Positions 32,985 to 64,000 of a stretch of 64,000 bases of DNA are shown piece after piece. The notes below the pieces were generated by a model. It searched no databases and had not been told where the DNA came from. It saw only the letters and a program-made list of their open reading frames with translations. A program made the position numbers and the translations under genes. The DNA is from Akkermansiaceae bacterium UBA5688. GTDB taxonomy: Bacteria; Verrucomicrobiota; Verrucomicrobiia; Verrucomicrobiales; Akkermansiaceae. Where the stretch lies: positions 27,031-91,030 of the forward strand of contig DIHU01000219.1 in NCBI GenBank assembly GCA_002420315.1, read 5' to 3'. Numbering within the stretch: the first letter of the stretch is position 1; each line of letters opens with the position of its first letter.

Positions 32985-35900
32985 TAGCCTCGTCCATGTT
33001 TAAAATTAAATTGGCCACCAAAGACCATGCAGCCAGTTCAGATGAATTAAGATCTTTTGCAGGTTCAGATTCCCCAAAAGTAATAGCTTTCATCGCTTCC
33101 TCTGGAGCACTCTGATATTTATCAAATTGCTTTTCAAAGAACCCGGCAATGATCTTTTTCTCCTCCATTCCAGGCAACCTCGAAACGACACTTTTGAAAA
33201 TAAAGTCTATCCTCTTTCCGCGATCGCTCGTGCTCTTCATAGCCCGTTCCCCCAATCCACGTGCGGCTTCAAAATGCTGCACATCATTCATCAACTGCAA
33301 GGCCTGCAACGGTGTGTTACTCCGCTCACGCTTTACACAAAATTGCTCGCGAGCAGGGGCATCAAAGTTAGCGAACATCGGATGAGGAGCCGTCCGCTTA
33401 AAAAAGGTGTAAACCGATCTCCGATATAAGTCAGCCCCATTCCCTCGTTTATAAAACCGCGTGTTTGATCCCCCAAACGCAACCGGCTCCCAAATATTGG
33501 GGGGTTGATATGGCATAACACCCCGACCGCCCATTTTAAAATTCATCAAACCGCTTACAAACAAAGCCTGATCACGGAGTTGCTCAGCATCGAGACGGAA
33601 TCTTGGCCCTCGAGCTAGGAAACGATTTTCAGGATCATTATCCCATCTTGGACTCGCCGCGGCACTCTCCTGTCGAAAGGTCTTTGTTAGCATTACCTCG
33701 CGTATGAGTGCTTTGACATTCCAACCATTAGCTTGAAAACGCAGAGCCAAATAGTCTAATAGCTCAGGGTGACTAGGGAAATCTCCCTGAGTGCCAAAAT
33801 CATGACTAGTCTTGACCAAGCCAATTCCAAAAAGCTGCTGCCAAAAACGATTCACCACAACCCTAGCTGTCAATGGATTCTCTTGAGAAACCAGCCAGTT
33901 CGCAAGATCTAGACGGGTTGCTCGTTTCCCAGTTTTCACCAATGTGGGTAGAACTGAAGGGGTCCCAGGTTCCACCTTCTCGCCAGGTTGATTATACTCG
34001 CCGCGCTTCATCACATAGCTCTCACGAGGTTTGGGTAAATCTCGATATACAAAAGTTGACGGTAGCCCTTTTTCATAGTTCGCCTGCTCACTCTCAACCT
34101 TTATCAGCTCCGTTCGTTTTGCCTCAAATTCTTTCCCTAAAGTCCCGCAGATCCGTGCGAGATAGTAATCTTTCAGAAGAGCCAACTCAGATGGTTTTCT
34201 TTCTTTCTCAATACCTTCTTGAAGCCACTGCCTCAAGGGTTCGGGAACTCCATTAACCTGCTTGGCTTTCCTCCATGCTAAAAACGAAGCCTTAGGATCA
34301 GTCGTAGGATCCTCGCTTCCAAGGACACCAAAATGATCAAAATAAGCGGTTCCTCCATGAACGGTAAAAGCAAACCCAACGATTTGCATTCCTGCCTTCA
34401 AACCCATCTTTTCACCAGGGACTTCTAGCCTTATCCACTTACCTGTCTCGGGCAATGGACCAGCGACGAATCGCTGACTCGTCCCCTTTTTGCCAAAATC
34501 GATAATATCCGCTCCCCAAACTGCTCGATGATTCCACGCCGACCCATGAAACTGAATCATCACTTCCTCCGGTGTATCCTTGGGGTCAAGATAGACGTGA
34601 AGAAAAAACCTAGATCCGCTAGGCACAGTCAAAGGAGCCGCACCCGATTCATAATAATCTTGGGCCATCTCTTTCCCTCCCCGCTTCAACGCCTTCTGCC
34701 CACTGAATACGGGCTGATCTACTAACGTCAGAGGATGACCAGAGTTTCCAACTTTCGCCCCATTTGGGAACTCATCTTCAAACCAAATAGCTTCCGTATC
34801 TTCAATCCGAACAGACGATTTATTCCCCGCTGGATCTTGGTATGAATTCCAAACTGGAAGCTTCTTCATTGATTGCACCACGCCATTACTCAGTTTATTA
34901 AACTCCGCAATTTTCGCCTCATAATTCTCAGCCTTCACCTTGATTACCGGAGCAGTTAGCAGACTGTTCCCATCCATTGCCGGATCGGCATTCGAATTAA
35001 AAAATGCATACAGGGAATAAAACTCCTTCTGGGAAATCGGGTCGTATTTATGATCGTGACATGCCGCACATTGGGCTGTTAGCCCCAACCATACCTGCGC
35101 AGTAGTGCTCGCGCGATCCACCGCATAGCGAAAGATCAATTCCTCTTTAATGCTTCCACCCTCACCACTTGTCACATTGCAACGGTTAAAGCCAGTGGCT
35201 ACCAGTTGATCTACCTTTGGATTCGGCAATAAATCGCCTGCCAGCTGCTCGACTGTAAAATCATCATAGGGGAGATTGTCATTGAATGATTTAATCACCC
35301 AATCGCGATACGCCCACATCTGACGCTCGTTATCTAAATGCATCCCGTGTGTATCACCATAACGCGCGGCATCTAGCCAATGCCGCGCCATTTCTTCTCC
35401 GTAACGAGCAGAATCCAAATAGCGATTCACCATCCTCTCATAGGCTCCATCCGTTTGATCAGACAAAAACCTATCTACCTCCTGAATTGTAGGAGGCAAT
35501 CCTGAGAGCGCAAAACTCACTCTCCGAATCAAAACTTCCCGATTCGCTTCGGGCGATGGTTGCAGATTATTCTTTTTTAGGACAGATCCCACAAACCGAT
35601 CTATCTCACTTCCCTGCCCTGGTGGTACGATTGGCATCACGGGAGACTCAAAAGCCCAGTGTTTTTGGTAGGATGCACCTCCTTCAATCCATCGCTTAAT
35701 CAATCTTTTGTCCTCATTGCTCAGTGTCTTTCGCGAATCAGGCGGGGGCATCATCTTGTCTTCGTCATCCGAAATAATCCTTAGCCACAACTCACTTTCA
35801 TCCGGTTTCCCTGCCACCAATGCTGCCTTTCCACGCCGCTTTTTTCGGAATGCTCCCTCCGGCGTATCAAGCCTTAACTTAGCCTCCCGCGAATCCTCGT

Positions 35901-36057
35901 CAATTCCGTGACACGTAAAGCACTTGTCCGAAAGAATTGGACGGATGTCCCGGTTGAAGTTTAAGACCTCGCTCCCGGTTGCAAAAAAGGACGACCCCAA
36001 CATCAAAAAAACGCAAAAACCGCTCCGATAAATCACACGAGACTCTAGCAAAAACAT
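32971..36057 (-). CDS. PSCyt (planctomycete cytochrome c) / DUF1549 / DUF1553 protein
   Basis: N-terminal haem-type motif CFTCHG, a second [11 protein letters not shown] block, and a DUF1553-type C-terminus. 14-nt overlap with the downstream DUF1501 gene. Confidence 0.8.
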
Positions 36058-37916: not shown

Positions 37917-39311
37917 ATGTTAGTTATTTTTTCAAAACTCCCCACAACTCTCACCCTCGGTCTTGCCGCCGTCCTTGTCTCGTGCGAAGCCCTAAAAGGA
38001 CCCAAGGCAATTAACTCTGGAACAATCGATTTGCCCGGAGCTTTTTCCCAAGCCAAATCCGGACAAAACGCAAAGATTTCCACCGGATGGATTAAGGAGT
38101 TTCGCGACTCCCGTATGACCAAAATTGTCAGGGAAGCCCTCGCTCACAATCAAGGACTCAAAGCCGCAGCTTATCGCCTCAAGGCTGCCCGCGAAGGAAC
38201 TATTATCGGCCGAGCAAGCCGACTCCCTTCAGTCAATGCCTCAACCTCATATCGTAAAACAGATAGCCAGGATATTTCCTCAAACGAGAACTATTCCATC
38301 TCTCTTAACGCCGTCTGGGAGCCTGACCTCTGGGGGCGACTTCGTAATCTCGATTATTCTGCTCGCGCAAATTACACCGCTTCGATAGCCGACTTCCGTG
38401 GCGCCAGACTTTCACTTGCAGCAAATACCGCAAAGGCTTGGTGTAATCTTGTCACATCGGAACAACAACTCGAACTCGCAAAAACCAACGTCGCGTCATT
38501 TAGTCAGGCTCTTATTGTTGTAGAGCGACGTTACAAGGCAAACACCCTTCGCTCCGTTGATGTCCAATTCGCCCGCAACAATGTCGCCAACTCCAAACGT
38601 AGCTTAAGCGTTCGGCAGCTCGGCCGCGACAACGCCGCCCGGAATCTCGAAGTTCTGCTTGGGAGATATCCAGCTGCCACAATCAATTCATCGACCGACC
38701 TTCCCTACCTTTCAGAACGCATCCCCATCGGCCTTCCATCCAAACTCCTCGAGCGACGCCCCGATCTCGAGGCGGCCCGCGCCCGCCTCTTTGCCTCAGC
38801 TCAGAATGCTGAAGCGGCTCGTAAGAACCTTCTACCTAACCTTCGCCTAACAGGAGGCACCTCAAATGGCGCAGATACCTTTAGACGCGCCCTAGATCCA
38901 AATTTTTTAGTTTATTCGATAGCTTCATCACTCGCACAAACAGTCTATCAAGGTGGTGCCTTAAGCGCACGCGCACGCGCTGCTCTCGAGCAAAATCGAG
39001 CCGTAATCGAAGATTATACCCGCCTTGCTTTACTGGCCTTCCGCGAAGTCGAGTCAGCCATCGAAACAGATCGTTCGCTCACCGAACAAGAACGTTATCT
39101 TAGACAAGAGGTCAAACAATCTCAGCTCGCTGTTAAACGAGCTCTTTCTGACATAAGCCTTGGAATTGATGGAGCCTCTTTCCTAGAATACCTTGAAGCT
39201 CAACGGCGGGCAGAAGCTGCCGGCATCTCATTGATTCGACTCAAGAACCAAAGACTCCAAAACCGTATCGACCTCCATCTGGCCTTAGGCGGTGATTACT
39301 TTACAGAATAG
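37917..39311 (+). CDS. Efflux outer-membrane factor lipoprotein (NodT/TolC family)
   Basis: Lipobox LVSC, and two TolC-type repeats with RPDLEAARARL-type motifs. No adaptor or pump gene is adjacent. Confidence 0.8.
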   Translation: MLVIFSKLPTTLTLGLAAVLVSCEALKGPKAINSGTIDLPGAFSQAKSGQNAKISTGWIKEFRDSRMTKIVREALAHNQGLKAAAYRLKAAREGTIIGRASRLPSVNASTSYRKTDSQDISSNENYSISLNAVWEPDLWGRLRNLDYSARANYTASIADFRGARLSLAANTAKAWCNLVTSEQQLELAKTNVASFSQALIVVERRYKANTLRSVDVQFARNNVANSKRSLSVRQLGRDNAARNLEVLLGRYPAATINSSTDLPYLSERIPIGLPSKLLERRPDLEAARARLFASAQNAEAARKNLLPNLRLTGGTSNGADTFRRALDPNFLVYSIASSLAQTVYQGGALSARARAALEQNRAVIEDYTRLALLAFREVESAIETDRSLTEQERYLRQEVKQSQLAVKRALSDISLGIDGASFLEYLEAQRRAEAAGISLIRLKNQRLQNRIDLHLALGGDYFTE

Positions 39312-39452
39312 CATTCCGAATTGGACTCCATCTCACTCATCGCAACCCTAAGGAGCTGTAGTTTTTATCCTACGGCAGGTCAAACTTCGCGGAAGACAAG
39401 CTCTTCGGACCAACCACAAAAAATTCTACGAAATTTTCCTTGATCAGATTCC

Positions 39453-39479
39453 TCATTAACGCGAGTAACTCGCGTTAAT
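39453..39479. promoter_or_regulatory. Perfect 27-bp palindrome (13-nt arms, 1-nt centre) at the start of the downstream outer-membrane gene. Candidate operator or translation-blocking hairpin.
   Basis: CATTAACGCGAGT-A-ACTCGCGTTAATG, read directly. The right arm ends in ATG (39477-39479). The existence of the palindrome is certain; its function is inferred. Confidence 0.5.
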
Positions 39480-40629
39480 GAAGCTGCTTTCCACTCTGGC
39501 GATTTTCACCAGTTCCTTGCTTGCAGACATTAGTCTTGATCCCACCTTTCACTTCAATGGGGTCATTGGGGACACCTCAGCCGAGTCGTTCAGCGAGATT
39601 GGAGGCCACGCCCACGATCCCAATGACAACTTTGCCGTTCAGGGTTTGGAGCCTGGGATGAACCTTCGGGTCGATGACTGGCTCGCCGGTTTCACCAACA
39701 TTAACATTTTCACGGATCCGAATCACGAGATTGATTGGGAACTCGAAGAAGCTTTCCTAAAGTTCAAAAATCTCCCGGGAGGCTTTGAAGTTCGTGGGGG
39801 GCGTATGCTCGCCCGAATGGGGCTTCAAAATAATCAGCACCTCCACACGTGGACTCTGATCAACTCCAACCTCACCACTTCTCAGTTTCTTGGTGAGGAA
39901 GGTTTAATGAGCGAGGGAATCGAGCTAACCTGGCGAAAAGACTTCGATCGGGGATTCTTAGCAATCTCATCCAACTTTAGCAATACCGCTTCTCATCATC
40001 ACCGTGATGATGAGGGCCACGGAGAGGACGAGCATGGGCACTCACCCGAAGACGCCTTTATGGAAGACAACGTATTCGTGTCTCGATTACTCCTCAGCTA
40101 CAACTGGAATGATTTTCATCAAAATATTCTGGGACTTAACACAGCATGGGGAAAAAACGGCTATCGTCGTAAAACCTCCATGCACTCGATCGATTACGCC
40201 TATACTTGGCGAGAAAATGGTATCGAACTAGGTGGACGGGAATTCTCTATCGGCGCCGAATATTTTTATCGTGACGTCGAGTGGATGGGTGCAGACGACC
40301 CCACGCTCCGCGGAGCAACCTCACAGAATAGCTTAATGGCCTACATTAATTACCGTTTTCATCCACAATGGGTTGCTGGCCTCCGCTACGAATACCTGGC
40401 AGGAGCCAGCGGTGGGGCCGATATTCACCTGGGCGAAACCGAGTATGCTTCTTTCGAGTCCGCCAAGCGTGAACGCCTCACCATTGCTCTAACCCGCGAA
40501 TTCCGCCACAGCGACCTCATGCTCTCTACTATCCGTCTCCAGTATTCCCACGATGACCTAGAGAACGAAAATGCTGATTCTATCTGGCTGCAATTCGGGT
40601 TCAATTTCGGTGGTCCCGAGATCCGCTAG
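39478..40629 (+). CDS. Putative outer-membrane beta-barrel (porin-like) protein with a His/Asp/Glu-rich loop
   Basis: Signal peptide (KLLSTLAIFTSSLLA), alternating beta-strand pattern, and the loop SHHHRDDEGHGEDEHGHSPED at about nt 39990-40050. The start codon is problematic (see findings). Confidence 0.55.
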   Translation: MKLLSTLAIFTSSLLADISLDPTFHFNGVIGDTSAESFSEIGGHAHDPNDNFAVQGLEPGMNLRVDDWLAGFTNINIFTDPNHEIDWELEEAFLKFKNLPGGFEVRGGRMLARMGLQNNQHLHTWTLINSNLTTSQFLGEEGLMSEGIELTWRKDFDRGFLAISSNFSNTASHHHRDDEGHGEDEHGHSPEDAFMEDNVFVSRLLLSYNWNDFHQNILGLNTAWGKNGYRRKTSMHSIDYAYTWRENGIELGGREFSIGAEYFYRDVEWMGADDPTLRGATSQNSLMAYINYRFHPQWVAGLRYEYLAGASGGADIHLGETEYASFESAKRERLTIALTREFRHSDLMLSTIRLQYSHDDLENENADSIWLQFGFNFGGPEIR

Positions 40630-49982: not shown

Positions 49983-52900
49983 ATGCCATTTCCTGAGGAT
50001 AAAACTAAAGAATCTCCAAAGCCCCATTGGCATTGGAGAAGACGTCTCTTTTACCCTTTTGTTCTAATCGTAGGGCTCCTAATCTGGGTAAATGGACCTG
50101 GTTTTCGTTGGGGACTAGAAAAGATTATCTTGCAAAAATTGGCTGCCGAAGACTTTTCGGGGAGCTTCGTATTAGAGGGGACAGCACTCTCGGGAATCTC
50201 GATTCGTGAGATCTCCATTAATGGAAAATCAACTATTCAAAGCATTGAATCCGATTTAATCAAAATTGAATGGTCACTTGGATCGTTGATTGACATGGAA
50301 CTCGAGTCCATCGCCCTTAAGGGGATTTATATTATAATCGACCCAGAGGCTTCCAAAGCAGGCATCTTTTCAGGTGACCAAGGCCAGGAACGAGCCTCCA
50401 AATCTAAGACCTCTCTCACAGAGGTCCTAGGTCTAATCAAGGGCTTCATCCAGCCTGCCGAAATTTCAATCATCGGCCTTAAGGTTGAGGTCGAAAATAT
50501 GACTCAAGTTTCGCTGGGGTCCCTAACTCATAGCGCTGGCGAGAGTTACTATTTCATTTCGGATCTTCAATCACGCGACCATCTCGACCGCAATATTTAC
50601 AATCCGGAGTCCATCGTGACTTGGAATCAAGATGGCTTCTTCATCAACCAAATCACCTTGAACTCGCAGCTCGCGATTCAAGATATTTTCTTCAAACCAG
50701 AGAAATCAGCCTCGATGGTTATCTCCGTAGCCGGCAGCAAAGTCCTCGCGGAGTCAGACCTTAAGTCCTCTCACCGAATTTCACTTGAATCGCCTTCCCT
50801 CTCGATTCCTAGTCTCATCGAACTCGCAAAACCCGACCTTGAATCAGCAGGCGAAATCACAAAGCTCGAGATCAATACGTCAAGTGGCTCTTTCGCCCTC
50901 GAAGCTTGTGACCTGAGATACGAGGACCAAGAAATTTCACGAGCCTCAATCGCCGCCATTACAGAAGATTTACTTTCGCCCTTTGAAAAGCCAATCAACA
51001 TTCAAGTCTCGGTTGATGATAAAATACAAGCTGAGGGAATTGTGATGTTAGATCGCCAAATTCTTGATTCCTCAGCCGAGCTAGATCTCGCTGTCAATTG
51101 GCCCAAATTCCCCACTATTAATGGTGAACTTCATTACGATTCCCGAGAGGCTCACTTATCTGCCTTGGCTCTTGACCACCTCCGAGCCACCGCTCGATTT
51201 CAGATTGATTCACAAACCTACCAGGCCAAAATCTATTCCGAGATCAACGAATCAACGATTCTCGATGAGAATCTCGAAGGGCCCTTAAACTTCACGGCAA
51301 GGGCCAAGGGTGATTTTAAAATGGCTAAGCACTCAGGCTCACTAGACCTATTTGAGATGGGCTTCCATCTGCCTAACTTTTCGCAATTCGCCGCAAATGG
51401 GAAGATCATCTGGAACTGGCCGAACCAGATTGCGGTCGAACGCCTCGAAATGATTAGTTCCGAGGCAGTCGCTGAGACCAAACTAAACTGGTCGAATGGC
51501 ACTCTTGAAGTTGACTACATTAAAGTTTTTGAAAAAGACGATGAACTGCTCTCCGTTGAAGCAAACTTTCCAGTACCTCTCTCGACTCGCTCGCTAAATG
51601 AGATCCTAGAATCGGAGAAAGAGATCTCCTTGAAAATCAATTCTAAGCCTCTAACCCTAGAGCGACTTTCATCATTTTTGCCTATACCAGCCGAACTTTC
51701 CGGGATTTTTCATGCTGAAGAATTTAACCTTACTGGGACTTTTTTCAATCCCTTGCTAAATGGAAAGATCTCCCTGAAAGATTTTCAGTCAACTGTTACC
51801 CCACAGCTCTCTCCTGCCGAAATTGTAATTGAAGTTCAAACTGACGCTAAGAATCTCATCGTAGACTTCGAGGCAAAAGATCCCGTAGGACAAATACTTA
51901 AATTAGATGGAACCTTCCCATTCCTTCCCCGGAAATGGCTCGATCAAAAAATGATCCCGCTTGATTCACCTCTTACCCTAACAGTCAAAAACGATCGGCT
52001 GGACCTCCGGCGCATCCAACCGCTCACCCCCTCCATTCCCAATATCAGGGGCACACTTAATCTAGATTTAAGATTATCGGGCTCACTCATAGAACCTCGA
52101 TTGAACGGCAATATTAACGCAGATAATCTCAATACTAGCCATCTGACTAACCTTCCGGACTTTGGTTTAAACTTGGAACTTAAGACCACCAATCAAGAAA
52201 TCACCCTTAATGGATCAGGAAAAAACGGCACTGCCAACTTAATGACGATTGCCGGAAGGCTACCTCTACAACCAAAAACATGGTTGGGACTTCCAGAATC
52301 AGAGCCTGAAAAAGAATTCCTTTTTGAAATAAAAGATGCCGAAGTAGACCTAAGTCAAGTCCAGCCATTCGTGCCTATGGTCAAGAATGTTCAAGGAAAT
52401 TTAGAGCTGAATGTCAAAGCCACTGGTACAAGTTCCAGTCCACAGTTTTCAGGAGATGCCGACCTAAGTATTACAAAAATGCGCCTTGATGATTCGCCCT
52501 TCTCGGAATTCCGTGATTCTCGAATCATCCTCAATCTAGCAAATGACATCATAACAGTTAATGAAAGTTCCATCAGAGCATCCGGCGGTAAAGCAACCAT
52601 CAGAGGATCCATTAACCTAGCCTCAAAAGATGCTGATTTCGATCCTATCTTCGACGTTGAAGTAGAGGGAAAAGATATTCTTCTCTATCGCACCAAGGAT
52701 CTAAATTTCCGCGGCCACCCTAACCTCACAATCACCGGCCCTTATTCAAAAGCAAAAATCGCAGGGACTCTCAAAATTGCTGACAGCCTTATATACAAGG
52801 ACGTCGAAATCCTTCCCTTTGGAGTCCCCCGAACAAGCGAAACACCAAGACCAAACCTTCCCTCATTTTCACAAAGTCCCAAAATGGAGAATCCAATCAT

Positions 52901-53582
52901 TTCGCCTCCCTCTGGCGTCATGGAATGGAATCTCGAGGTTGATATCACTACCGAAGACCCCGTCCTTATTCGAGGCAATCTCATAGATGGCCAGATCACC
53001 GGCCAAAACTTGAAACTCAGAGGCACAATAGGATCGCCCAAACCCTCAGGTACTGTGACCACTGAAGAGATTGTTGCTGACCTCCCCTTCAGCAAGCTAG
53101 AAGTCCAGTCGGGATCAATCACCCTCAATCCCGATTCACCGACCAATTCATACCTTGACCTCAAAGGAAGCTCCAAAATCAGTTCCTACCTCGTTCAAGT
53201 TTTTGTGTCGGGTACGATTCAAAACCCCAAACTAGTCCTCACTTCGGACCCACCGCTTCCTGAAAATGAAATTATGCTTCTCTTAGCTACCGGTTCCGTA
53301 TCTTCACAACTAGCAAATCAAGAAGTCGCGTCACAAAAAGCACTTCAATACCTCTTCGAAACCCTCCGTCGTAGAAATGGTGAAAAAGATAAGTCGATCC
53401 TCCAAAGATTCCTCAAAAACTCCGGTCAAATCAAAGTTTCACTCGGCGAAACCAATCAATACTCAGGGCAAAATTTTTCCTCAGCAACCCTCAATCTTGA
53501 CGATCGTTGGGATTTCACCACTCAAATCGATGAACAAGGGCAGACGAGAGCTTTTCTCGTTTTCTCGGTTCGCTTTAAGTAA
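49983..53582 (+). CDS. tamB: Translocation and assembly module protein TamB-like (DUF490 C-terminus)
   Basis: N-terminal anchor (LFYPFVLIVGLLIWV), a long beta-rich body, and a C-terminal GTIQNPKLVLTSDPPLPENEIMLLLATG block. Confidence 0.75.
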   Translation: MPFPEDKTKESPKPHWHWRRRLFYPFVLIVGLLIWVNGPGFRWGLEKIILQKLAAEDFSGSFVLEGTALSGISIREISINGKSTIQSIESDLIKIEWSLGSLIDMELESIALKGIYIIIDPEASKAGIFSGDQGQERASKSKTSLTEVLGLIKGFIQPAEISIIGLKVEVENMTQVSLGSLTHSAGESYYFISDLQSRDHLDRNIYNPESIVTWNQDGFFINQITLNSQLAIQDIFFKPEKSASMVISVAGSKVLAESDLKSSHRISLESPSLSIPSLIELAKPDLESAGEITKLEINTSSGSFALEACDLRYEDQEISRASIAAITEDLLSPFEKPINIQVSVDDKIQAEGIVMLDRQILDSSAELDLAVNWPKFPTINGELHYDSREAHLSALALDHLRATARFQIDSQTYQAKIYSEINESTILDENLEGPLNFTARAKGDFKMAKHSGSLDLFEMGFHLPNFSQFAANGKIIWNWPNQIAVERLEMISSEAVAETKLNWSNGTLEVDYIKVFEKDDELLSVEANFPVPLSTRSLNEILESEKEISLKINSKPLTLERLSSFLPIPAELSGIFHAEEFNLTGTFFNPLLNGKISLKDFQSTVTPQLSPAEIVIEVQTDAKNLIVDFEAKDPVGQILKLDGTFPFLPRKWLDQKMIPLDSPLTLTVKNDRLDLRRIQPLTPSIPNIRGTLNLDLRLSGSLIEPRLNGNINADNLNTSHLTNLPDFGLNLELKTTNQEITLNGSGKNGTANLMTIAGRLPLQPKTWLGLPESEPEKEFLFEIKDAEVDLSQVQPFVPMVKNVQGNLELNVKATGTSSSPQFSGDADLSITKMRLDDSPFSEFRDSRIILNLANDIITVNESSIRASGGKATIRGSINLASKDADFDPIFDVEVEGKDILLYRTKDLNFRGHPNLTITGPYSKAKIAGTLKIADSLIYKDVEILPFGVPRTSETPRPNLPSFSQSPKMENPIISPPSGVMEWNLEVDITTEDPVLIRGNLIDGQITGQNLKLRGTIGSPKPSGTVTTEEIVADLPFSKLEVQSGSITLNPDSPTNSYLDLKGSSKISSYLVQVFVSGTIQNPKLVLTSDPPLPENEIMLLLATGSVSSQLANQEVASQKALQYLFETLRRRNGEKDKSILQRFLKNSGQIKVSLGETNQYSGQNFSSATLNLDDRWDFTTQIDEQGQTRAFLVFSVRFK

Positions 53583-53587
53583 AATCC

Positions 53588-55525
53588 ATGGTTCTCCGGA
53601 TCACAGTATTGATTCTGCTTTTCACCCCAGTATTAGCTCCTGGAGCAAATGTGGAATTCGTTGGCTTGCGATCATTCACTTCAGAGAGCCTCTTGAAAGC
53701 AGTCGCGGGTCGAATGGACTATATTCGTAAGCGAGATGCCACCGATTCACGTGCCGACGATGCGGCCTACCTAGTCGAATCTTATCTAAAAACCCATGGA
53801 CTGCCAGATGCCGTAATTTCAGGGCAAAGAATCTCGGACAATAAAATCCGTCTCACCATTGAGGAAGGACTCTCACAGTTTCTAGGATCGATCAAAGTCA
53901 CTGGATTCGATGACGTAGAGGCAATTCAGGACCAATTCCAAGCGACATTCCCCGAGACGGTTAAACAACGAGCCTTTGAATCCAAATTTATTGAAGAAGG
54001 CCTAGAGAGAGTCCGTGATCTTTTGCATACAAATGGATACTGGAAAGGCAATCTCACAGCAATTCAAGAGGCGCGCCAAGCTGATGGAAAAATTCCATTC
54101 ACTTTGAAGATCGATAAAGGACCACTATTTATCCTCGAAAATCCTAATCTAGAAAGCCAAGTCAAGCCCTCGGCCGCTCTGGAAAAAATAGCTGGTGAGG
54201 CCAGAGGAGAAACAGCCACCGCAGAAAACATCATTTCGCTTCGCCGTAACATTAGCGAAGACTATCGCAGACGAGGTTATACCGATATTTCGCTGGTAAT
54301 GTTAAAGAAAATCAATGGTAACAAACTCCTGCTTAACTTCGTCATAACACCGGGGAAAAAATACATTGTTCGCTCATTCCAGACCGCCGGCCTCAACAAA
54401 ACCAACCCAAGTAATATTCAGAACCGCTTTAGGAAACTAATCGGTGAAAATTTTGACGAAAAATCGACAGGCCGCGATATAAAGAGGCTACTCTCGACGG
54501 GAGCTTTTTCCAGTGTACGCCTTGAAAAAAAAGAAATTAACGACGCCGAGCTAGATCTAACTCTTCATCTTAAGGAGGCCAAAGCGAGGGGATACTCCGT
54601 CGCTTTGGGATATGGATCAATCGAGGGCTACACCCTCGGTCTTCGTTACTTCGATCGTAACTTATATGGAAGCCTATCAAATTTATCTGCAGTAGCCGAA
54701 ATCACCTCTCTCGGTGGCCTGGGTGCAATCAGTCTCAGCAATCCATTTTTTTTAGATCAAGATCTAAGGCTCGCCAACCGAGCATTTCTCATTAATCGAG
54801 ACTTCGATAACTACGACAAATTAGAAGGAGGAATTGGCAGTGAACTGACATGGAAATGGGGTGATAATTACTCCACTAAGGTTGGCCTGACTGTGTCTCA
54901 AACTTCTATCAATACACCGATTCCCAAAGAATTGGCGGGCCCACGAAATTACATAGTATCAAGACTTGGTCTCCAGCAATTATTCGATAGGCGCAATAAC
55001 CCCGCGCTGCCTTCAGATGGTTGGTTTGCTCGCCTCAGCACATCTCTTGGATTGTCAGATGGAGATAATGCCATTGGTTTTTTTGAAGTAGAAAGCCAAT
55101 TCAGCTACTATCAAACACTGAGTGAAAATTCCTCTTACGCTTTAGGCTTGCGGGGAGGTTTTATTTCTCCATCTGGCGAAACCCAAAGCCTGCCCATCGA
55201 TCTACGTAAATTCCTAGGTGGGGCAAACACCATCCGCTCCTTTCCCGAACTTAAGATGGGATCATCTTTCAACGGTAACACTTTAGGAGGGACAGAGTGG
55301 TGGCTCGCGAATGCTGAATACAGGCACAACCTTGCCGGTCCATTCGAAGCCCTAATCTTCGTCGACGCTGCAGGACTCGACTCCGAAGTAGAATTAGCTG
55401 TCGGCTTGGGAGTTCGTATTAACCTCCCGGTAGGACCGATTCGGCTAGAATACGGTCGTTCCCTATCACAAAACAGTGGAGAACCCGGAGGCACTTTTCA
55501 CTTTGCTATCGGAACTACTTTTTAA
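53588..55525 (+). CDS. tamA: Omp85-family outer-membrane protein (TamA/BamA-like, POTRA + surface-antigen barrel)
   Basis: Signal peptide, POTRA-like repeats, a barrel domain, and a terminal beta-signal ending FAIGTTF. Lies 5 nt after tamB. Confidence 0.75.
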   Translation: MVLRITVLILLFTPVLAPGANVEFVGLRSFTSESLLKAVAGRMDYIRKRDATDSRADDAAYLVESYLKTHGLPDAVISGQRISDNKIRLTIEEGLSQFLGSIKVTGFDDVEAIQDQFQATFPETVKQRAFESKFIEEGLERVRDLLHTNGYWKGNLTAIQEARQADGKIPFTLKIDKGPLFILENPNLESQVKPSAALEKIAGEARGETATAENIISLRRNISEDYRRRGYTDISLVMLKKINGNKLLLNFVITPGKKYIVRSFQTAGLNKTNPSNIQNRFRKLIGENFDEKSTGRDIKRLLSTGAFSSVRLEKKEINDAELDLTLHLKEAKARGYSVALGYGSIEGYTLGLRYFDRNLYGSLSNLSAVAEITSLGGLGAISLSNPFFLDQDLRLANRAFLINRDFDNYDKLEGGIGSELTWKWGDNYSTKVGLTVSQTSINTPIPKELAGPRNYIVSRLGLQQLFDRRNNPALPSDGWFARLSTSLGLSDGDNAIGFFEVESQFSYYQTLSENSSYALGLRGGFISPSGETQSLPIDLRKFLGGANTIRSFPELKMGSSFNGNTLGGTEWWLANAEYRHNLAGPFEALIFVDAAGLDSEVELAVGLGVRINLPVGPIRLEYGRSLSQNSGEPGGTFHFAIGTTF

Positions 55526-56465: not shown

Positions 56466-57479
56466 TCACCCCGCACATGCTTCTTCGAAGCCCTTCACAA
56501 CATATCTAATATCCTTAGCCGAAATTCCCAAGTGAGTGACAAGGCGTTGTTTTCCGCCGGTGTATCCCCCAATCTTTATTCCTTTTGCTTCAAGGCTCCG
56601 TGACACCGCCGCACCATCAAATTCAGATAAATCGACAAAGACCATGTTCGTCTGTATCGGATCCACCTTAAGCTTGGATATACCAGCTAGGCTCTCTCCC
56701 AACTGGCGGGCATTTTCATGATCTTCGATCAGGCGGTCGATATGGTTTTCTAGCACATAAATTCCAGCAGCTGCCAACATTCCTGACTGACGCATTCCCC
56801 CTCCCAGCATCTTACGCCACCTTTTCGCTTCTTTGATAAAACTAGCAGAAGCAACGAGAACAGAACCCACTGGAGCTCCCAGCCCTTTAGACAAACAAAT
56901 TGATACCGACTCGAAAGGCTTCGCCAATTGAACAGCTGGCACTCCAGACGCAGCAGAAGCGTTAAAGAGCCGAGCACCATCGAGATGAAGCGATAGTTGA
57001 TAATCACTGGCAAATGACTGGACTAATTTGAGATAGTCCAGCGGAAGGGCCTTGCCCCACGTTGTGTTCTCAAGACACAAAAGCTTCGTCCGCGCAAAAT
57101 GGAAATCATCGGGCTTTACCAGTGCCGCAAGCTTATCCAGGGCCAGTGTCCCATCTTCTTCCTGATCGAGAGACTGGGGCTGGATACTTCCGAAGACGGC
57201 TGCTCCCCCACCCTCGAAGAGATAGGTGTGAGCTGTTTGACCAACAAGGTATTCGTCACCCCTACCACAGTGCGAAAGCAAGGCACAGAGATTACTCTGG
57301 GTTCCACTCGGAACATACATACCCGCTTCTTTCCCCAATATCTCGGCAGACATATCCTCAAGCCGAGCCACCGTTGGATCACAGTCCATCACATCATCTC
57401 CCACCTTCGCACGACACATAGCCTCCCTGATTTCAGGAGTCGGTTGGGTTACGGTATCACTCCGCAAATCGATGCTCAT
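56466..57479 (-). CDS. ltaE: Low-specificity L-threonine aldolase
   Basis: MSIDLRSDTVTQPTPEIREAM start and the PLP-lysine region. The ATG at 57479 is preferred over the tracked 57515. Confidence 0.85.
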   Translation of the reverse strand: MSIDLRSDTVTQPTPEIREAMCRAKVGDDVMDCDPTVARLEDMSAEILGKEAGMYVPSGTQSNLCALLSHCGRGDEYLVGQTAHTYLFEGGGAAVFGSIQPQSLDQEEDGTLALDKLAALVKPDDFHFARTKLLCLENTTWGKALPLDYLKLVQSFASDYQLSLHLDGARLFNASAASGVPAVQLAKPFESVSICLSKGLGAPVGSVLVASASFIKEAKRWRKMLGGGMRQSGMLAAAGIYVLENHIDRLIEDHENARQLGESLAGISKLKVDPIQTNMVFVDLSEFDGAAVSRSLEAKGIKIGGYTGGKQRLVTHLGISAKDIRYVVKGFEEACAG

Positions 57480-57537
57480 ACCTCTGCTCGTAAATAAGCC
57501 AGAGCGAACCCACAAGAACTTACTCCAAAGTAGCCCA

Positions 57538-57573
57538 TAAAAAACAGCCCATTACGATAATGTAACGGGCTGC
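57538..57573 (-). terminator. Rho-independent terminator downstream of the FKBP gene
   Basis: The minus strand reads CAGCCCGTTAC-attatc-GTAATGGGCTG (11-bp stem, one A-C mismatch) followed by TTTTTT. It lies about 26 nt after the FKBP stop codon. Confidence 0.65.
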
Positions 57574-57598
57574 TTTCAATGATTCACGGAGAGTTGAA

Positions 57599-59299
57599 CT
57601 ACTCTTGTCCTTTATCCTCCTTTGGCTTTGCCGGTTTCACTTCGATAGGCGGAGTGACAGCCTCAATCTTTTTGGGAGCAGCAGGGGTGACTATCGTAAA
57701 GAGTTCGATATCAAACACCAACATTCCTGCGGGCTTACCTGGCTGATTATTGTATGCAAGTTCAACGGGAATCCAAAAACGCCTCTTTTCGCCTTCAACC
57801 ATCAATTGGACTCCTTCGGTCCAACCTTTGATCACTTGGTTCAAAGGGAATTGAGCCTGCTCATCGCGCTCGATCGAGTTATCGAAGAGTTTTCCGTCTG
57901 TAGTCCAGCCTGCATAGTGAACCTTCACCGTGTCGGTTGCCGTCGGCTTGCGCTTACCCGTCCCAGCTTTGAGAACCTTGTAGGCAAGACCCGAAGCGGT
58001 TTTAGAGGCATCAGCTGGAGGCGCAGCCACATCTGCTGGTGCCTTGGGGGCGACTGGCTTTGGTTTGAACTCAACCAGCTCGAGGTCGAAAGTCAAAGCG
58101 CCTTCGGGAGCTCCACGGCCTTTGGATTCGAAAGTAAGGTTTTCAGGAATCCAGACACGGCGGCTCTCGCCCTTTTTCATTGTCTTCAAAATTTCAGCCC
58201 ATCCTTTAATCGGTGATTGATCGAGAGAAAGTGCCATAGGACCACCCATCGTTTCACTGGAACCAATTGAAGCACCATTTGTGTCCCATCCTTTGAAATT
58301 CACCTTCAGGAGATCACCATCAGTGGGGGAAGCATCTCCTTCTCCAGCCTTTATTACCGTATAGGCTATTCCAGATTGCGTCTTAGTCGCACTTTCGGGA
58401 GCAGCTGCAACATCTTTTGGAGCATTTGGATCTTTCGGTGGCGGTGGCGGCTTGGGAACTGCGCGGAAGTCTATCAATTCAAAGTCAAAAATCAAATCGC
58501 CCGCAGGAGCTCCGGCAGGTGCCTCTCCCTCTTTACCAAAAGCAAGGTTTGCAGGAATCCAGAAACGACGCTTCTCACCCTTTTTCATGAGCAACAGACC
58601 TTCGGTCCATCCTTTAATATTTAGTTCATTCAGTTTAAACTGCGCAGGCTGAGGATTACGGGTTGAGGTCGTCAAGAACTCTCCGTCGGCCTTCCAACCC
58701 GTAAACTGCGTGGTTACGACATCTTCAGGTCCCGGAGTCTGATCACCTTCCCCGACCTTCAGAATCTTGGATTTTAGCCCGGACTCGGTAGCAAGAGCAT
58801 CAGCCGGAGCAACAAGCTCTTTTGGCGCTGCTGGAGGTTTCACAATTTCAAGCAGTTCCACGTCAAAAGTAAGATTACCAGCAACTCGTCCTTGGTCGCC
58901 ATAAGCTAGATCAGAAGGAATCCAGAAGCGGCGCTTCTCACCAACGACCATCAATTGGAGGCCTTCAGTCCAACCCTTGATTACTCCATTAAGAGCAAAC
59001 TCAGCAGGCTGTCCCCGCTGCAGCGAACTATCGAACATTGTCCCGTCGGAAGCCTGCCATCCGGTGTAGTGAACTTTCACCGTATCGGTTGCAGAAGGCT
59101 TCTCTGTTCCGGTCCCTTTCTTCAGAACCAATGAGGCCAATCCTGACTCTGTTTTTGTAGCTTCAGCAGGAGCGGCCGCCACGTTGGCAGGCGCCTTGAA
59201 TTGGTCCCCTGCCGGAGCTGCTGGCTCTTGAGCAATCGCAGTCAGACCGAGAGCGCCACTTAGTAAACCGGAAATCAGCCGGCGTTTTCTATTAATCAT
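57599..59299 (-). CDS. Secreted peptidyl-prolyl cis-trans isomerase with four tandem FKBP domains
   Basis: Signal peptide (GALGLTAIAQEP). Four copies of the FKBP core (V.V.Y.GW..DG..FDSS...F.L...IKGW.EG...M..GEKRRFWIP..LAYG..L.FD.EL), separated by Pro/Ala-rich linkers. Confidence 0.85.
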   Translation of the reverse strand: MINRKRRLISGLLSGALGLTAIAQEPAAPAGDQFKAPANVAAAPAEATKTESGLASLVLKKGTGTEKPSATDTVKVHYTGWQASDGTMFDSSLQRGQPAEFALNGVIKGWTEGLQLMVVGEKRRFWIPSDLAYGDQGRVAGNLTFDVELLEIVKPPAAPKELVAPADALATESGLKSKILKVGEGDQTPGPEDVVTTQFTGWKADGEFLTTSTRNPQPAQFKLNELNIKGWTEGLLLMKKGEKRRFWIPANLAFGKEGEAPAGAPAGDLIFDFELIDFRAVPKPPPPPKDPNAPKDVAAAPESATKTQSGIAYTVIKAGEGDASPTDGDLLKVNFKGWDTNGASIGSSETMGGPMALSLDQSPIKGWAEILKTMKKGESRRVWIPENLTFESKGRGAPEGALTFDLELVEFKPKPVAPKAPADVAAPPADASKTASGLAYKVLKAGTGKRKPTATDTVKVHYAGWTTDGKLFDNSIERDEQAQFPLNQVIKGWTEGVQLMVEGEKRRFWIPVELAYNNQPGKPAGMLVFDIELFTIVTPAAPKKIEAVTPPIEVKPAKPKEDKGQE

Positions 59300-59332: not shown

Positions 59333-60340
59333 TCAACGCCACATCTCACAAGAATGAGCTGAAAACCCAGCACCGAAACTAGTCAACCAGTAGCGAGAAT
59401 CATTTTCAGATTGTCTTAAACGCTCCTCCAGAGCGAAAAGAATGCAGGGACTAGAGCAATTTCCAGCATTTTTTAGGACCGCGCGTGTTTCAGGCAATTC
59501 CCATCCCATTCGCTTTTCAAGAGCTTCGATTACATCCCTTCCACCAGTATGAGCAAGCACTTGATTCGGATCGGCCTGACGCTTCTGCCAAAGCTTTTCA
59601 ACTGCATCTGCGGCCAATTCAGGAACAATACGATGGAGTTTGTTTTCTAGTTTACCGCCGGAATTAATAAATCGAATTTTTTCCCTGTGCTCTGGAACAT
59701 GAATCGTATCGAACTTACCCACCTTCCACCTTCCATCACCTTCTTCATCAGACCAAATCGCCGCTGAAGCACCATCACCAAACAAACACATGCTAATGAG
59801 CACGCCAGGTTCTTCATTCATGAAGAGAGCAGCCGAACAGATTTCGACCGCCACTGTCGCAACCTTTTTACCGGGGTTTGCTGCCAGAAATCCCTCGGCA
59901 GCTCGCATCATCGGAAGGGCCGCTCCGCAGCCCAAGCCAACAATATCTTGAAGATACACATCATCTCTCATCCCCATATTTTCAGCCACATGGCTCGTTA
60001 CCCCCGGGCATAGATATCCTGTGCACGTACAAATGATAAGAGCGTCAATTTTGGACGGATCAACACCTGTTTTTTTAAGAGCCGCAATCGAAAGAGCTGG
60101 AGCTTCCCTTTCAAAATACTCATTAAGCTCCTGAGCTCCTTCCTTAAACATCGCAGCTGGGCTATCAGTGCAAAAATGCCGCCGTGTAATCCCAGAGTCT
60201 CCCAACAGCACTCTCTCCATAATCCCTTGTCCACGCCTACTTAATGACTGATAGGAAGAAGTCGTCCGCGTGAATTCAAAACACTCTTTCTGGGTGTAAG
60301 TATTGGAAGGAAAGGCGCTCGCTAGAGCTTCAAGAAACAT
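59333..60340 (-). CDS. Type III polyketide synthase (chalcone/stilbene synthase family)
   Basis: Active-site contexts [10 protein letters not shown] (Cys), HTGGRDVIE (His) and [10 protein letters not shown] (Asn), plus [10 protein letters not shown] and FGAGFS. These are PKS III-like rather than FabH-like (HQAN/GNTSAAS). The ATG at 60340 ([11 protein letters not shown]) is preferred over the tracked 60427. Confidence 0.8.
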
Positions 60341-63300
60341 GACTTGAGCTTCCCTTAGTTTGCGGATTTTCCAAAGGTTTATTTCGACCTGTGACAAAAT
60401 CAGTGCCCAGATTTCGAATATCTTCAAGGATCACATAGAGCGAAGGAACCAAGATGAGAGTAATCGCAGTCGCGAAGAGAATACCAAAGCCAAGCGAAAC
60501 AGCCATTGGAATGAGAAACTTTGCCTGCATATCATCTTCCACCAACATCGGCATGAGGCCCACAAAAGTCGTAAGCGAAGTCAAAAGGATCGGCCGGAAT
60601 CGCCTCACCCCGGCATTACGAGCGGCCTCCAAAATACTTGTTCCACTTTTCCTGTTACGATTCACGTAATCAACTAGTACTATGGAATCATTCACCACCA
60701 CTCCAGCCAGCGCAACAATCCCACACATTGACATAATGCTCATATTCAACCCCATAAAAATATGTCCCGCTACCGCACCGACCATTCCAAATGGGATCAC
60801 GCTCATCACGATCAAAGGCTGTAGATAGCTCTTAAGTGGAATTGCCATCAGAACATACATGAGCAACAGAGCACCCACAAAGCCGATCCCCATCTCACGA
60901 ATACTGTCGCGTTGATCACTCTGCTCACCTTTGAAAGAATATCGCACACCCGGAAATTTTTCCACAATCTTTTCGAGAACTTCCTCAGTGTATTTTTCTA
61001 CAATCTCATTTGCGTTATAACCTCTAGCGAGATCAACATCGGCCTTAAGGCTGATCGTTCGGAAACGATCCACACGAGTCACCGTAGCTGGCCCCCGACC
61101 GTATTCTGGATTCACAACATCAAGGAGTGCCACCTCTTCTCCCTCGGGGGTTCTTAATTTCATTTTCTCAAAATTGGCAAGAGAATCTCGCTCCGATTCG
61201 GGATAGCGCACCATCACTTTCACCTCGTTACGACCGCGCTGCAGACGCTGCACTTCATTGCCATAGAAAGCGTCGCGAACCTGATTCATCACGATGTTAA
61301 GATCGAAACCTAAGGCCTTACCTTGCGGCGTAAGATCACTTACGATCAACTCCTCCCGACCCCGTCGATCGGAATTTGAAACATCAACCACTCCTTGATA
61401 GTCCTTACGCAAGCGTTTAGTCGCCCAATTTGCGGCTGCTACCAATTGATCGTTATCCGGCCCAGTAAAATTGATATCGATAGCATTCCCACCCGCCGCC
61501 GTTTCTGCCCTGAAGGCGAGAGAAACCACCTCCGGAATTTCACCAGCAAGTTCCTGCCACATCGATTTTAATTGTTCACTGGAGAAGTCTCGATTCTTTG
61601 CGGCTGCGAGTTCAAGGGTGACTTCCCCTAAATGGCTTCCAGTGGGTGTCTTAGGGTAAAACGCACCCTGAAACGGCTGCATCCCTGCCGTCGCCAGCTG
61701 ATTAACAACAATAGAATCCCCATCGTTGTCCCGCGTTGTTTTGCCCAGTTCAAGAGCTGCTGCTTCCAATCGGCGCACCACTTTCTGGGTATTTAAAAAT
61801 GGGGCCCCCAAGGGCATTTCAAGTTTTGCAGATAGAATTTCGCCTTCCACTTTCGGAAAAAACTGGAAGGGTAACCAACCAGTTTTCACCAGCGATACCG
61901 AAAGTATTACGAGGGCAATAAACACAGTCCAAACCACATACCGAAGATTCAAACACGACTTCAGAAACGGCGAATAAATGACCTTCACAAATTGCTCAAG
62001 CCCCCCTGAAATTCTCCGCTGCAAGCGAGTCAATGGATTAGAACTTGGATTCGGGGATTGTGGCTTAAGAAGTGCTAGGTGAGCAGGCAGGACAAACTTT
62101 GATTGCAATAGAGAAAAACCCAAAACCGGAATTACAACCAAGGGGATATTAGGCCAAATCTTTCCACTCACTCCACTCAAGCCAAGCATGGGTGTGAAGG
62201 CCACCATGGTCGTAAGAATTCCAAAAATCACCACGACTCCCACCTCGTGCGTCCCCTTCCAACTCGCTTCCTTCGGATGCTCACCTTGCTGAATACGGCT
62301 ATAAACATTCTCGCCAACCACAATCGCGTCATCCACCACAATCCCCAAAACAAGAATAAAAGCGAAGGCCGAAATCATATTAATCGAAATGCCAAGACCG
62401 GTCATCAACCAGAGACCACCGGCGAAGGAAACCGGAATTCCCAATGCCACCAAAAAAGCCAAGCTTGGCCTCAAAAAAAGCGCCAAGACGAAAAGAACTA
62501 GCATTAGTCCTATCCCAATATTACCCCTGAGAAGATCTAATCGGCCCTTAAGAATAACACTTTGATCATTCCAAACGTCGATTTTTACCCCCTCAGGTTT
62601 CTCCAGTGAATCCACGTATTCCCGTGCAAGTTTGGCAATCGCTAAAGTATCTTGATTGGCTACCCGAAAGACATTTAGCACGACTGCAGGGCGACCATTA
62701 AAGGTAGACACTAGTTCGATATCTTCAAACCCATCGATCACTGAAGCAATCTCACCCAAGCTCAAATCTGAACCATCAGGCATCTTTTTGACAGTCACTT
62801 CCCGAAACTCCTCGCCTCGGTATTTTCGACCTAGGGCCCTCACTACAATCTCTCCTGAGTTCGTTTTCACCGATCCACTGGGAAGATCAAGAGAAGCGCC
62901 TCGAATGGCCATCGCGACTTGTTGCAAGGTGAGATTGTATCGCCTTAGAGTATCTTCGGGAACTTCGATTGAAATTTCATAAGGCCGAACCGATGCCAAC
63001 TCCACTTTCTTGATGGTCTCCTGCCCCTTGAGCAGCCTCTGCACAAATCCTCCAGGATCGGCGAGAAACGCCTTTTTCTTCGATTCCGGCTCGGGCGGCA
63101 CATAGTTTAGCAAGCCATCCCGAATTCCTTCAGCATAATGACGAAGACTGCCTTCATCAGTATCAGCAGTGATCGCAAGACTAAGAATTTGCCGATTTGC
63201 GACCAATTCCTCAAACCTAGGCTCCTCAGCATTCTCAGCAAAGTTATCGATGGCATCAACATTGGTTTGCACGTCACCCATGACGTCGCGAGTATTATAA

Positions 63301-63596
63301 CTGGTCTCAACCTCAATTGTAAGAGTCCCCATATTTCTCACTGCAGTTGAGGTCACCTGCTTAATACCCTCAACCTCCGCAATCGCTTCCTCAATTGGAA
63401 TCACCACTCCACTTATAACTTCCTCGGGAGTTGCATTCGGATAAGGAACACTAACGATAACTGCGTCAAAAGACGTCTCTGGAAAGACCTCCTTTCGAAG
63501 CTGAAACCATGCAGCAAAACCAGCAATTAAGACAGCCAGCATAAGAAAATTGGCCGCGACGTGATTGCAACTGAACCATTTGATCGACTTCTGCAT
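60330..63596 (-). CDS. RND-superfamily efflux permease (AcrB/HAE-like, 12 TM)
   Basis: 1088 aa, with the typical N-terminus ([19 protein letters not shown]) and two large periplasmic loops. Conserved TM4/TM10 regions ([22 protein letters not shown]). Confidence 0.85.
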
Positions 63597-63600
63597 GACT

Positions 63601-64000
63601 TTATTTGGACTCGTTTTTGCCCTCTTCCTGCTGATCTACTTTCGCCGGCTCCAAGGTCATCCCCGGAATCGGCATATCGACCTTCGTGAGAATTACCATC
63701 TCACCGTCAGCAACTCCTTGAGTTGCAAAAACGTAGTCGACATTTTTTCGGGCCACCATCAATTCACGCAGCTCCAACTTATTCTCCCCATTAAGCACAA
63801 GAATCTGGTTCCGCCCCCGAACAGCGGACCGGGGAACGGCAATCACCCCCGGCAGAACACCACCCTTCACGGTAGCATTCAAGAACATCCCTGGCGAAGG
63901 CAAATGAAAACGGTTAGGATGATCATTATTCGCGATAATCTTTGCCAACACGAATGAGGAGAGGGTTTTTTGATCAACCTGTCCCAGCTCCCACATCATC
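63601..64000 (-). CDS. RND efflux periplasmic adaptor (membrane-fusion protein), C-terminal part; gene continues beyond the window
   Basis: MFP C-terminal beta-barrel/MP domain pattern (GVIAVPRSAV..G...VLV......ELR.L......D.V....GV..GE.VIL). The frame is open to the window edge. 4-nt gap to the RND gene. Confidence 0.75.
   Translation of the reverse strand, partial: MMWELGQVDQKTLSSFVLAKIIANNDHPNRFHLPSPGMFLNATVKGGVLPGVIAVPRSAVRGRNQILVLNGENKLELRELMVARKNVDYVFATQGVADGEMVILTKVDMPIPGMTLEPAKVDQQEEGKNESK

Follow-up and report, generated by a model that had tools for sequence, protein, structure and literature searches.

Here we describe a gene string in a 64,000-nt stretch of DNA from Akkermansiaceae bacterium UBA5688 (contig DIHU01000219.1; "the window" denotes this whole stretch) in which a gene encoding a type III polyketide synthase (PKS) lies directly behind the inner-membrane permease gene of a resistance-nodulation-division (RND) efflux operon. 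We think it probable, though well short of certain, that this arrangement arose when an older biosynthetic operon was split and its PKS gene became fused behind a generic, pre-existing pump operon, with co-regulation of pump and PKS being plausible. If so, the window would hold the 3' two-thirds of a six-gene string encoding a TetR regulator, an outer-membrane factor (OMF), an adaptor, the RND permease, the type III PKS, and a protein with four FKBP domains (4xFKBP). The last two genes would be the tail of an older operon that encoded a methyltransferase (MT), a FAD-flavoprotein (FDO), the type III PKS, and the FKBP protein. In one lineage, this older operon would have been split, the PKS gene and about 40 nt of its own leader would have been joined directly behind the RND gene, and the MT-FDO pair would have been relocated elsewhere in the genome.

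The string occupies 57.5-64 kb of the window on the minus strand, with its genes ordered adaptor, RND permease, type III PKS, and secreted 4xFKBP protein, followed by a terminator:

63601..64000, minus strand: adaptor (membrane fusion protein), C-terminal third; the stop end is at 63601 and the 5' part lies beyond the window edge
60330..63596, minus strand: RND inner-membrane permease (HAE1-like), 1088 aa; Pfam ACR_tran, 521 bits, full length
59333..60340, minus strand: type III PKS, 335 aa; ATG at 60340, stop at 59333
57599..59299, minus strand: secreted protein with four FKBP-type peptidyl-prolyl isomerase domains, 566 aa; four Pfam FKBP_C matches, 296 bits; signal-peptide-like N-terminus
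57538..57573, minus strand: intrinsic terminator at the end of the gene string; 16-bp stem and U-run, -28.5 kcal/mol, z = -6.3 versus shuffles

We found that the coordinates, spacings, and gene order proposed for this string in an initial annotation of the DNA all hold in the window. The adaptor and RND genes are separated by 4 nt and the PKS and FKBP genes by 33 nt, while the PKS start overlaps the RND stop by 11 nt, with ATGTTTCTTGA covering the RND stop. The ATG at 60340 is the true PKS start, because all 21 aligned homologs open with M[FY]L.. at the same position.

We compared two assignments of the gene, type III PKS and FabH (KAS III). The PKS scored above the Pfam cut-off of 27 for each of FAE1_CUT1_RppA (62.5 bits), Chal_sti_synt_N (45.8 bits), and Chal_sti_synt_C (29.7 bits), and its score against ACP_syn_III (23.9 bits) was under the cut-off of 24. 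Among NCBIfam models, DpgA gave 110 bits versus at most 61 bits for the FabH models, all of them under the equivalog cut-offs; the best FabH model reached 60.9 bits versus a cut-off of 249. All 60 listed matches in a PDB sequence search belonged to the chalcone synthase superfamily (type III PKSs and plant 3-ketoacyl-CoA synthases). An AlphaFold2 model of the protein (pLDDT 88.3, pTM 0.89) was searched against the PDB with Foldseek, and the top 50 fold matches were all type III PKSs, the best being PKS11 of M. tuberculosis (4jap; TM-score 0.87, E 1e-29). Neither the 60 listed sequence matches nor the 50 best fold matches included a FabH structure. The profile scores, PDB matches, and fold matches together rule out a FabH/KAS III identity, and the assignment to type III PKS made in the initial annotation is borne out. 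So is its statement that the catalytic Cys/His/Asn contexts are intact: GLGC138GAA falls on Cys164 of chalcone synthase, LFGDGA on the gatekeeper Phe215, H264TGGRD on HPGG, and GN294CSS on GNMSS, with C138, H264, and N294 invariant in 22 sequences of the family. The protein is approximately 22-25% identical to solved enzymes, and its dN/dS against the closest relative (L001) is 0.067. Judging from sequence and model, we consider it a genuine type III PKS of a divergent verrucomicrobial clade that appears intact and under purifying selection.

We found relatives of this PKS at 568 or more genome loci, and based the analysis on the best 80 species-level loci plus an isolate, Verrucomicrobiaceae bacterium 227 (strain 227), clustering the neighboring open reading frames (ORFs). 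The family is essentially verrucomicrobial, comprising metagenome-assembled genomes of Akkermansiaceae and Verrucomicrobiaceae together with Luteolibacter, Haloferula, and Roseibacillus. The adjacency of RND and PKS genes reported in the initial annotation is present in the closest relatives of the window: 14 of the 80 loci (L001-L012, L018, and L022; PKS identity 62-94%) have an RND gene directly upstream of the PKS and an FKBP gene downstream, as does strain 227, which lies outside the 80. The two genes are spaced by -11 to +41 nt in all 14 loci and by 15 nt in strain 227. The overlap itself, which had been read as translational coupling of PKS and pump, fared less well. It is confined to the window and L002, and the spacing in the other relatives is +1 to +41 nt; it is therefore the tight spacing that is conserved, and not the overlap of start and stop.

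A different upstream context prevails in the rest of the family. In a neighboring group of loci (L013, L015-L017, and L019-L021; PKS identity 67-71%), the PKS is preceded by a class-I methyltransferase-like gene (the MT, ~210 aa) and a gene for a FAD_binding_3/geranylgeranyl-reductase-like flavoprotein (the FDO, ~335-355 aa), and usually followed by FKBP. Most other loci (PKS identity 52-62%) have methyltransferase, flavoprotein, and PKS genes with no FKBP gene. Altogether, MT and/or FDO homologs were found upstream of the PKS at 60 of the 80 loci, making this pair the commonest upstream partner of the family, and at none of the RND-linked loci. The observation in the initial annotation that no tailoring gene is adjacent to the PKS extends to the whole 64-kb window, which has no MT or FDO homolog, and none was found within 10 kb on either side at the 14 RND-linked loci. 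A third arrangement is found in L014 (5886..11981), where PhoH, TrkA, aspartyl protease, and hypothetical genes stand directly before PKS-FKBP. Since the L014 PKS is nearest to that of the RND-linked locus L010 and yet has other genes upstream, the region upstream of the PKS appears to be a recurrent breakpoint with three arrangements.

On scaffold_1 of ERZ23491415 (682 kb), the two presumed parent operons occur as separate units: thioredoxin-MT-FDO-PKS-FKBP-FKBP2-NaCaEx-Lgt (PKS identity 67%) lies at 243-258 kb, and a separate pump operon (RND identity 74%) lies at 287-304 kb, 40 kb from the PKS operon. The fused form is found in the complete genome of strain 227 (CP144259.1). There, at ~0.69 Mb, HSP33 and methylase genes run divergently from TetR-OMF-adaptor-RND-PKS-FKBP-FKBP2 (RND identity 76%, PKS identity 73%), with NaCaEx-Lgt farther downstream. 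The same genome carries a stand-alone MT-FDO pair at ~1.56 Mb, ~870 kb away, whose products are 62-68% identical to the operon-borne copies. This stand-alone context recurs on three metagenomic contigs. In all four stand-alone loci (L089, 6357..8017; L090; L091; and L092) the pair has a divergent AA_kinase neighbor, and three of them, on contigs that extend further, have DUF218, Pterin_bind/RibD_C, and SDR genes downstream. The pair apparently survives without an adjacent PKS, and, although the initial annotation noted no tailoring gene adjacent to the PKS, the family's usual partners persist, unlinked, in strain 227. Because the synteny downstream of the PKS (FKBP-FKBP2-NaCaEx-Lgt) and that upstream of the pump (HSP33 and the divergent TetR) both recur in relatives, both are likely to be ancestral, and the novelty would be the RND-PKS junction.

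Two short motifs precede the PKS and FKBP start codons, and the first allows the junction to be placed more precisely:

60369..60374, minus strand: TTGG[ACT]AA(A) motif, 34 nt before the PKS ATG, within the RND tail codons
59331..59336, minus strand: TTGACA hexamer, formed by the last Arg codon (CGT), the TGA stop, and CA; 37 nt before the FKBP ATG

The first motif occurs 33-37 nt before the PKS ATG in 23 loci of the clade, RND-PKS and MT-FDO-PKS alike, and is absent from more distant loci and, like the pump, from the L014 locus. In the MT-FDO arrangement it lies in the 43-44-nt spacer between FDO and PKS, and in L007-L011 it lies just past the RND stop. The last ~25 residues of the RND protein form a non-conserved tail, alignments with relatives ending near residue 1063. 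These observations suggest that, when the PKS moved, the motif came along from its place between FDO and PKS and ended up in the RND 3' tail, and that this tail now reads through the former PKS leader. Because the motif keeps its distance from the PKS in both arrangements, the breakpoint can be placed, by this comparison, within about 10 nt upstream of it. The junction also appears to be old and stable, since synonymous sites are saturated between the window PKS and every relative other than L001 and the tight spacing is kept in all 14 loci. In an RND tree, the main linked clade received 98% bootstrap support and L018 grouped firmly with strain 227 and L010. A neighbor-joining tree of the PKSs was poorly resolved; it placed L018 and L022 basal to the MT-FDO-linked loci, with identities all in the range of 62-78%.

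The same motifs bear on a different explanation, in which pump and PKS are neighbors and nothing else. Here the PKS and FKBP genes would each be transcribed from a promoter of their own, marked by TTGG[ACT]AA and TTGACA approximately 35 nt before their ATGs, there would be no link to the pump, and the junction would have persisted because no rearrangement happened to break it. Both motifs look like -35 elements for short or leaderless transcripts, and both show nucleotide-level conservation at constant distances. TTGACA is found at the equivalent position in L001-L022, L085, L088, and L093, and it tracks the FKBP gene, being present in 22 of 22 loci with FKBP after the PKS and in 0 of 53 without. 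As the FKBP ATG has no Shine-Dalgarno sequence before it, this hexamer is a candidate -35 element of a separate FKBP promoter that overlaps the PKS stop codon and yields a leaderless mRNA. Across the window, -35-like hexamers cluster 34-41 nt before candidate starts. The movement of TTGG[ACT]AA with the PKS into the RND tail and the recurrent breakpoint upstream of the PKS would also fit a self-contained PKS unit. However, the sequences at the corresponding -10 positions match poorly (GA..(G/T)T after the FKBP hexamer, and variable after the PKS motif), and a generic sigma-70 promoter scan found no site at either junction, with the total number of sites under the shuffled expectation. In many loci a Shine-Dalgarno-like GGAGG stands between TTGG[ACT]AA and the PKS ATG, which implies that the transcript begins farther upstream; nor does any terminator separate RND from PKS. 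A strict pattern search for TTGRCA-N16-GANNNT was uninformative. In the PKS-FKBP spacer, a stable RNA structure was not significant (z -1.25), and around the junctions Rfam gave sub-threshold, chance-level matches only. On balance, we consider it rather unlikely that the PKS merely adjoins the pump.

We next consider what kind of pump the PKS has joined. ACR_tran covers residues 11-1057 of the RND protein and a periplasmic adaptor is encoded next to it, as is characteristic of tripartite, HAE1-like RND systems. The adaptor fragment in the window was matched by the NCBIfam RND_mfp and AcrA/MexA models over C-terminal parts only, and aligns with the final third of the 380-398-aa adaptors of relatives. 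Where enough upstream sequence is available (nine RND-linked loci), the order is TetR-OMF-adaptor-RND-PKS. An OEP-family OMF gene directly precedes the adaptor in L001, the 94%-identical relative, and in eight others, and in L001 HSP33 and DNA methylase genes lie divergently upstream of TetR-OMF-adaptor-RND-PKS-FKBP. Since relatives read in this way, the full string of the window is predicted to be TetR-OMF-adaptor-RND-PKS-FKBP, with the OMF of its pump encoded in cis just past the window edge. This argues against the suggestion, made in the initial annotation, that the OMF is supplied in trans by an orphan NodT gene at 37917; that gene product is just 31-35% identical to the OMF of the relatives' pump operon. 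The gene in question encodes an OEP-family outer-membrane factor (464 aa) and, within 37917..40629 on the plus strand, is followed by a 383-aa secreted ORF that is rich in His, Asp, and Glu (HHHRDDEGHGEDEHGH) and matches no Pfam family; no transporter gene lies alongside.

Orthologs of the RND protein (59-96% identity) are widespread in Verrucomicrobiales, and some of them have no PKS. Three (69-75%) lie in the same context, TetR-OMF-adaptor-RND divergent from HSP33, with no PKS downstream; what follows is PurE-PurK in L081, DUF1003 in L082, and convergent unrelated genes in L084. A Haloferula ortholog (60%) likewise follows TetR-OMF-adaptor, without HSP33 upstream, and is followed by unrelated genes. 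These comparisons suggest that the first four genes of the string are an ordinary TetR-controlled tripartite RND efflux operon, conserved next to HSP33 in this group of Verrucomicrobiales.

The initial annotation had proposed a dedicated make-and-export module, in which the RND pump exports the PKS product or inserts it into the outer membrane and selection keeps the two linked. RND-PKS adjacency and tight spacing are indeed kept in 14 species-level loci and strain 227 despite saturated synonymous divergence, and all three pump components (OMF, adaptor, and RND permease) are encoded in cis, as dedicated export would predict. Some cyanobacterial type III PKS clusters contain RND transporters (PMC8086630). 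In general, RND-family lipid exporters such as MmpL and HpnN are also well established. Several observations are nonetheless difficult to reconcile with this proposal. Orthologous pumps occupy the same HSP33-flanked position with no PKS, so that pump and PKS do not co-occur as a dedicated exporter and its substrate enzyme should; the pump and a separate MT-FDO-PKS operon coexist on one scaffold; most members of the PKS family have no adjacent pump; the PKS-FKBP pair of L014 sits behind PhoH-TrkA-protease genes instead; and the tailoring enzymes expected to act before export are encoded elsewhere. We therefore view a dedicated exporter as improbable. Another version of a functional link is that the TetR-controlled tripartite pump was recruited, in one Akkermansiaceae/Verrucomicrobiaceae lineage, as an export route for a phenolic lipid. 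The PKS product or a tailored form of it would then be the substrate and perhaps the TetR ligand, and synthase, pump, and periplasmic multi-FKBP chaperone would form one inducible envelope-remodelling operon. This, too, strikes us as a long shot. At most, this pump may conceivably export the PKS product.

We thus return to operon splitting and fusion behind a generic pump, which would have the following consequences. The pump would not have been built as a dedicated exporter of the PKS product. With RND and PKS just -11 to +41 nt apart and no terminator to separate them, read-through from the TetR-controlled pump promoter is probable and would co-induce the PKS with efflux. By analogy to hid, srs, and PKS11, the enzyme most likely uses malonyl-CoA to extend, by condensation, a long-chain acyl starter into a phenolic lipid of the alkylresorcinol or alkylpyrone type, which the unlinked methyltransferase and flavoprotein may modify in trans. 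Lipids of the alkylresorcinol type alter membrane properties and antibiotic tolerance in other bacteria. Co-induction would place a membrane-modifying lipid beside efflux, which would be sensible if the lipid stiffens or protects the envelope.

Several points weigh against this reading. TTGG[ACT]AA and TTGACA could be promoters, making PKS and FKBP independent of the pump, and we infer co-transcription from spacing alone. The RND tree leaves a second linked clade (L007/L009/L011) without a resolved placement relative to the unlinked pumps, and the number of fusion events cannot be fixed from the trees. That the junction has lasted through saturated divergence could itself mean that selection favors a functional link between pump and PKS. 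Finally, the product class is assigned by analogy and not by orthology, because the PKS is 22-34% identical to planctomycetal enzymes and the flavoprotein match is weak.

The FKBP gene stands 3' of the PKS in 22 related loci, MT-FDO-PKS operons included. Its product matched the NCBIfam BamJ model with 266 bits, which is the sum of four generic FKBP repeats, and we did not accept membership in that family. About 2 kb from this gene, at 49983..55525 on the plus strand, lies a TAM-type pair for outer-membrane assembly, which consists of a TamB-like gene (1199 aa) and, immediately after it, an Omp85/POTRA gene (645 aa). The hairpin that ends the string (57538..57573), which the initial annotation had singled out as the only convincing terminator of the operon, proved to be strong, and terminator-like sites within the string are at chance level (13 versus 9.3 +/- 3.5 expected). 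A sub-threshold Rfam match to Thr_leader (25.5 bits, E 0.19) falls on this hairpin, within 57538..57648 on the minus strand. It lies directly upstream of a threonine-aldolase-like gene (Beta_elim_lyase, 56466..57515) and has no evident Thr-rich leader peptide; we regard it as probably a chance match. Elsewhere in the window (31503..36057, minus strand), a PSCyt1-PSCyt2-PSD1 protein gene (1028 aa) adjoins a DUF1501 protein gene (493 aa), a pairing typical of the PVC superphylum.

Taken together, we see in this locus a clear case of an operon split and fused within a verrucomicrobial PKS family, and not a new type of system. It suggests that the core enzyme of a biosynthetic operon can end up under the control of an efflux operon, and it cautions that gene adjacency alone does not make a dedicated "make and export" module. 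It also draws attention to a large clade of verrucomicrobial type III PKSs with hid-like partners that is uncharacterised. If pump and PKS were functionally linked after all, a multidrug-type pump would have been captured for lipid export through operon fusion; such a link could be tested in strain 227, an isolate whose genome is complete.

How does this locus compare with known systems? An operon of a methyltransferase, an oxidoreductase, and a PKS offers the closest architectural parallel; of 96 type III PKS genes in Planctomycetota, 58 have it beside them (Milke et al. 2024, PMC10896814). The planctomycetal PKSs yield alkylresorcinols in C. glutamicum, and the same operon type is found in Cyanobium (PMC10896814). 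Like hidABC, the hierridin B operon of Cyanobium, the commonest arrangement of the verrucomicrobial family comprises these three enzyme classes, ordered identically and ending with the PKS. HidC-type enzymes share 48-55% identity among cyanobacterial and planctomycetal members (PMC10896814), whereas the window PKS is 22-34% identical, over partial alignments, to the G. maris, R. baltica, A. californiensis, and S. ferox enzymes. At this level we did not accept orthology to the planctomycetal alkylresorcinol synthases; the reference sequences, taken from the supplement of that paper, carry frame errors from optical character recognition that reduce sensitivity. Against these same damaged references, the flavoprotein match was weak and a methyltransferase match was not detectable. 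We therefore describe the resemblance as an architectural one. Where hidABC and the planctomycetal operons have a methyltransferase and a FAD oxidoreductase directly upstream of the PKS, the window has an RND gene; its operon appears to have been split and the PKS fused to a pump operon, and a secreted multi-FKBP gene follows the PKS. The older MT-FDO-PKS-FKBP operon is likewise analogous to srsABC. PKS11 of M. tuberculosis (a long-chain alkylpyrone synthase), PKS18, and other bacterial enzymes that make long-chain alkylpyrones or alkylresorcinols (SrsA and ArsB/C) resemble the window PKS in fold, in their Cys-His-Asn triad, and in the gatekeeper context LFGDG, but the window PKS is ~22% identical to this type and shorter (335 aa).

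The initial annotation knew of no described case of a type III PKS coupled to a tripartite pump, which was too strong a statement. Type III PKS clusters that carry RND and MFS transporters are known from cyanobacteria (PMC8086630), and in the phl cluster PhlD is accompanied by a permease, PhlE, and a TetR regulator, PhlF (PMC8003664). Our literature search returned no description of a type III PKS gene added behind a conserved TetR/OMF/adaptor/RND operon while its tailoring genes moved elsewhere. Both known cases pair a type III PKS with an efflux-type transporter, and the phl cluster also has a TetR regulator, but PhlE is a single-component permease, unlike the tripartite pump here. In the cyanobacterial clusters the tailoring genes stay beside the PKS, whereas here they would lie elsewhere and the pump would be a pre-existing, housekeeping-type operon. 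That operon resembles those of the AcrR-AcrAB-TolC, TtgR-TtgABC, and MexR-MexAB-OprM type, in that TetR, OMF, adaptor, and a 12-transmembrane RND protein are encoded in one string that is likewise conserved in relatives. It differs from them in that the OMF gene comes first and that, here and in ~15 related genomes, its 3' end is extended by genes for a biosynthetic enzyme and a periplasmic chaperone.

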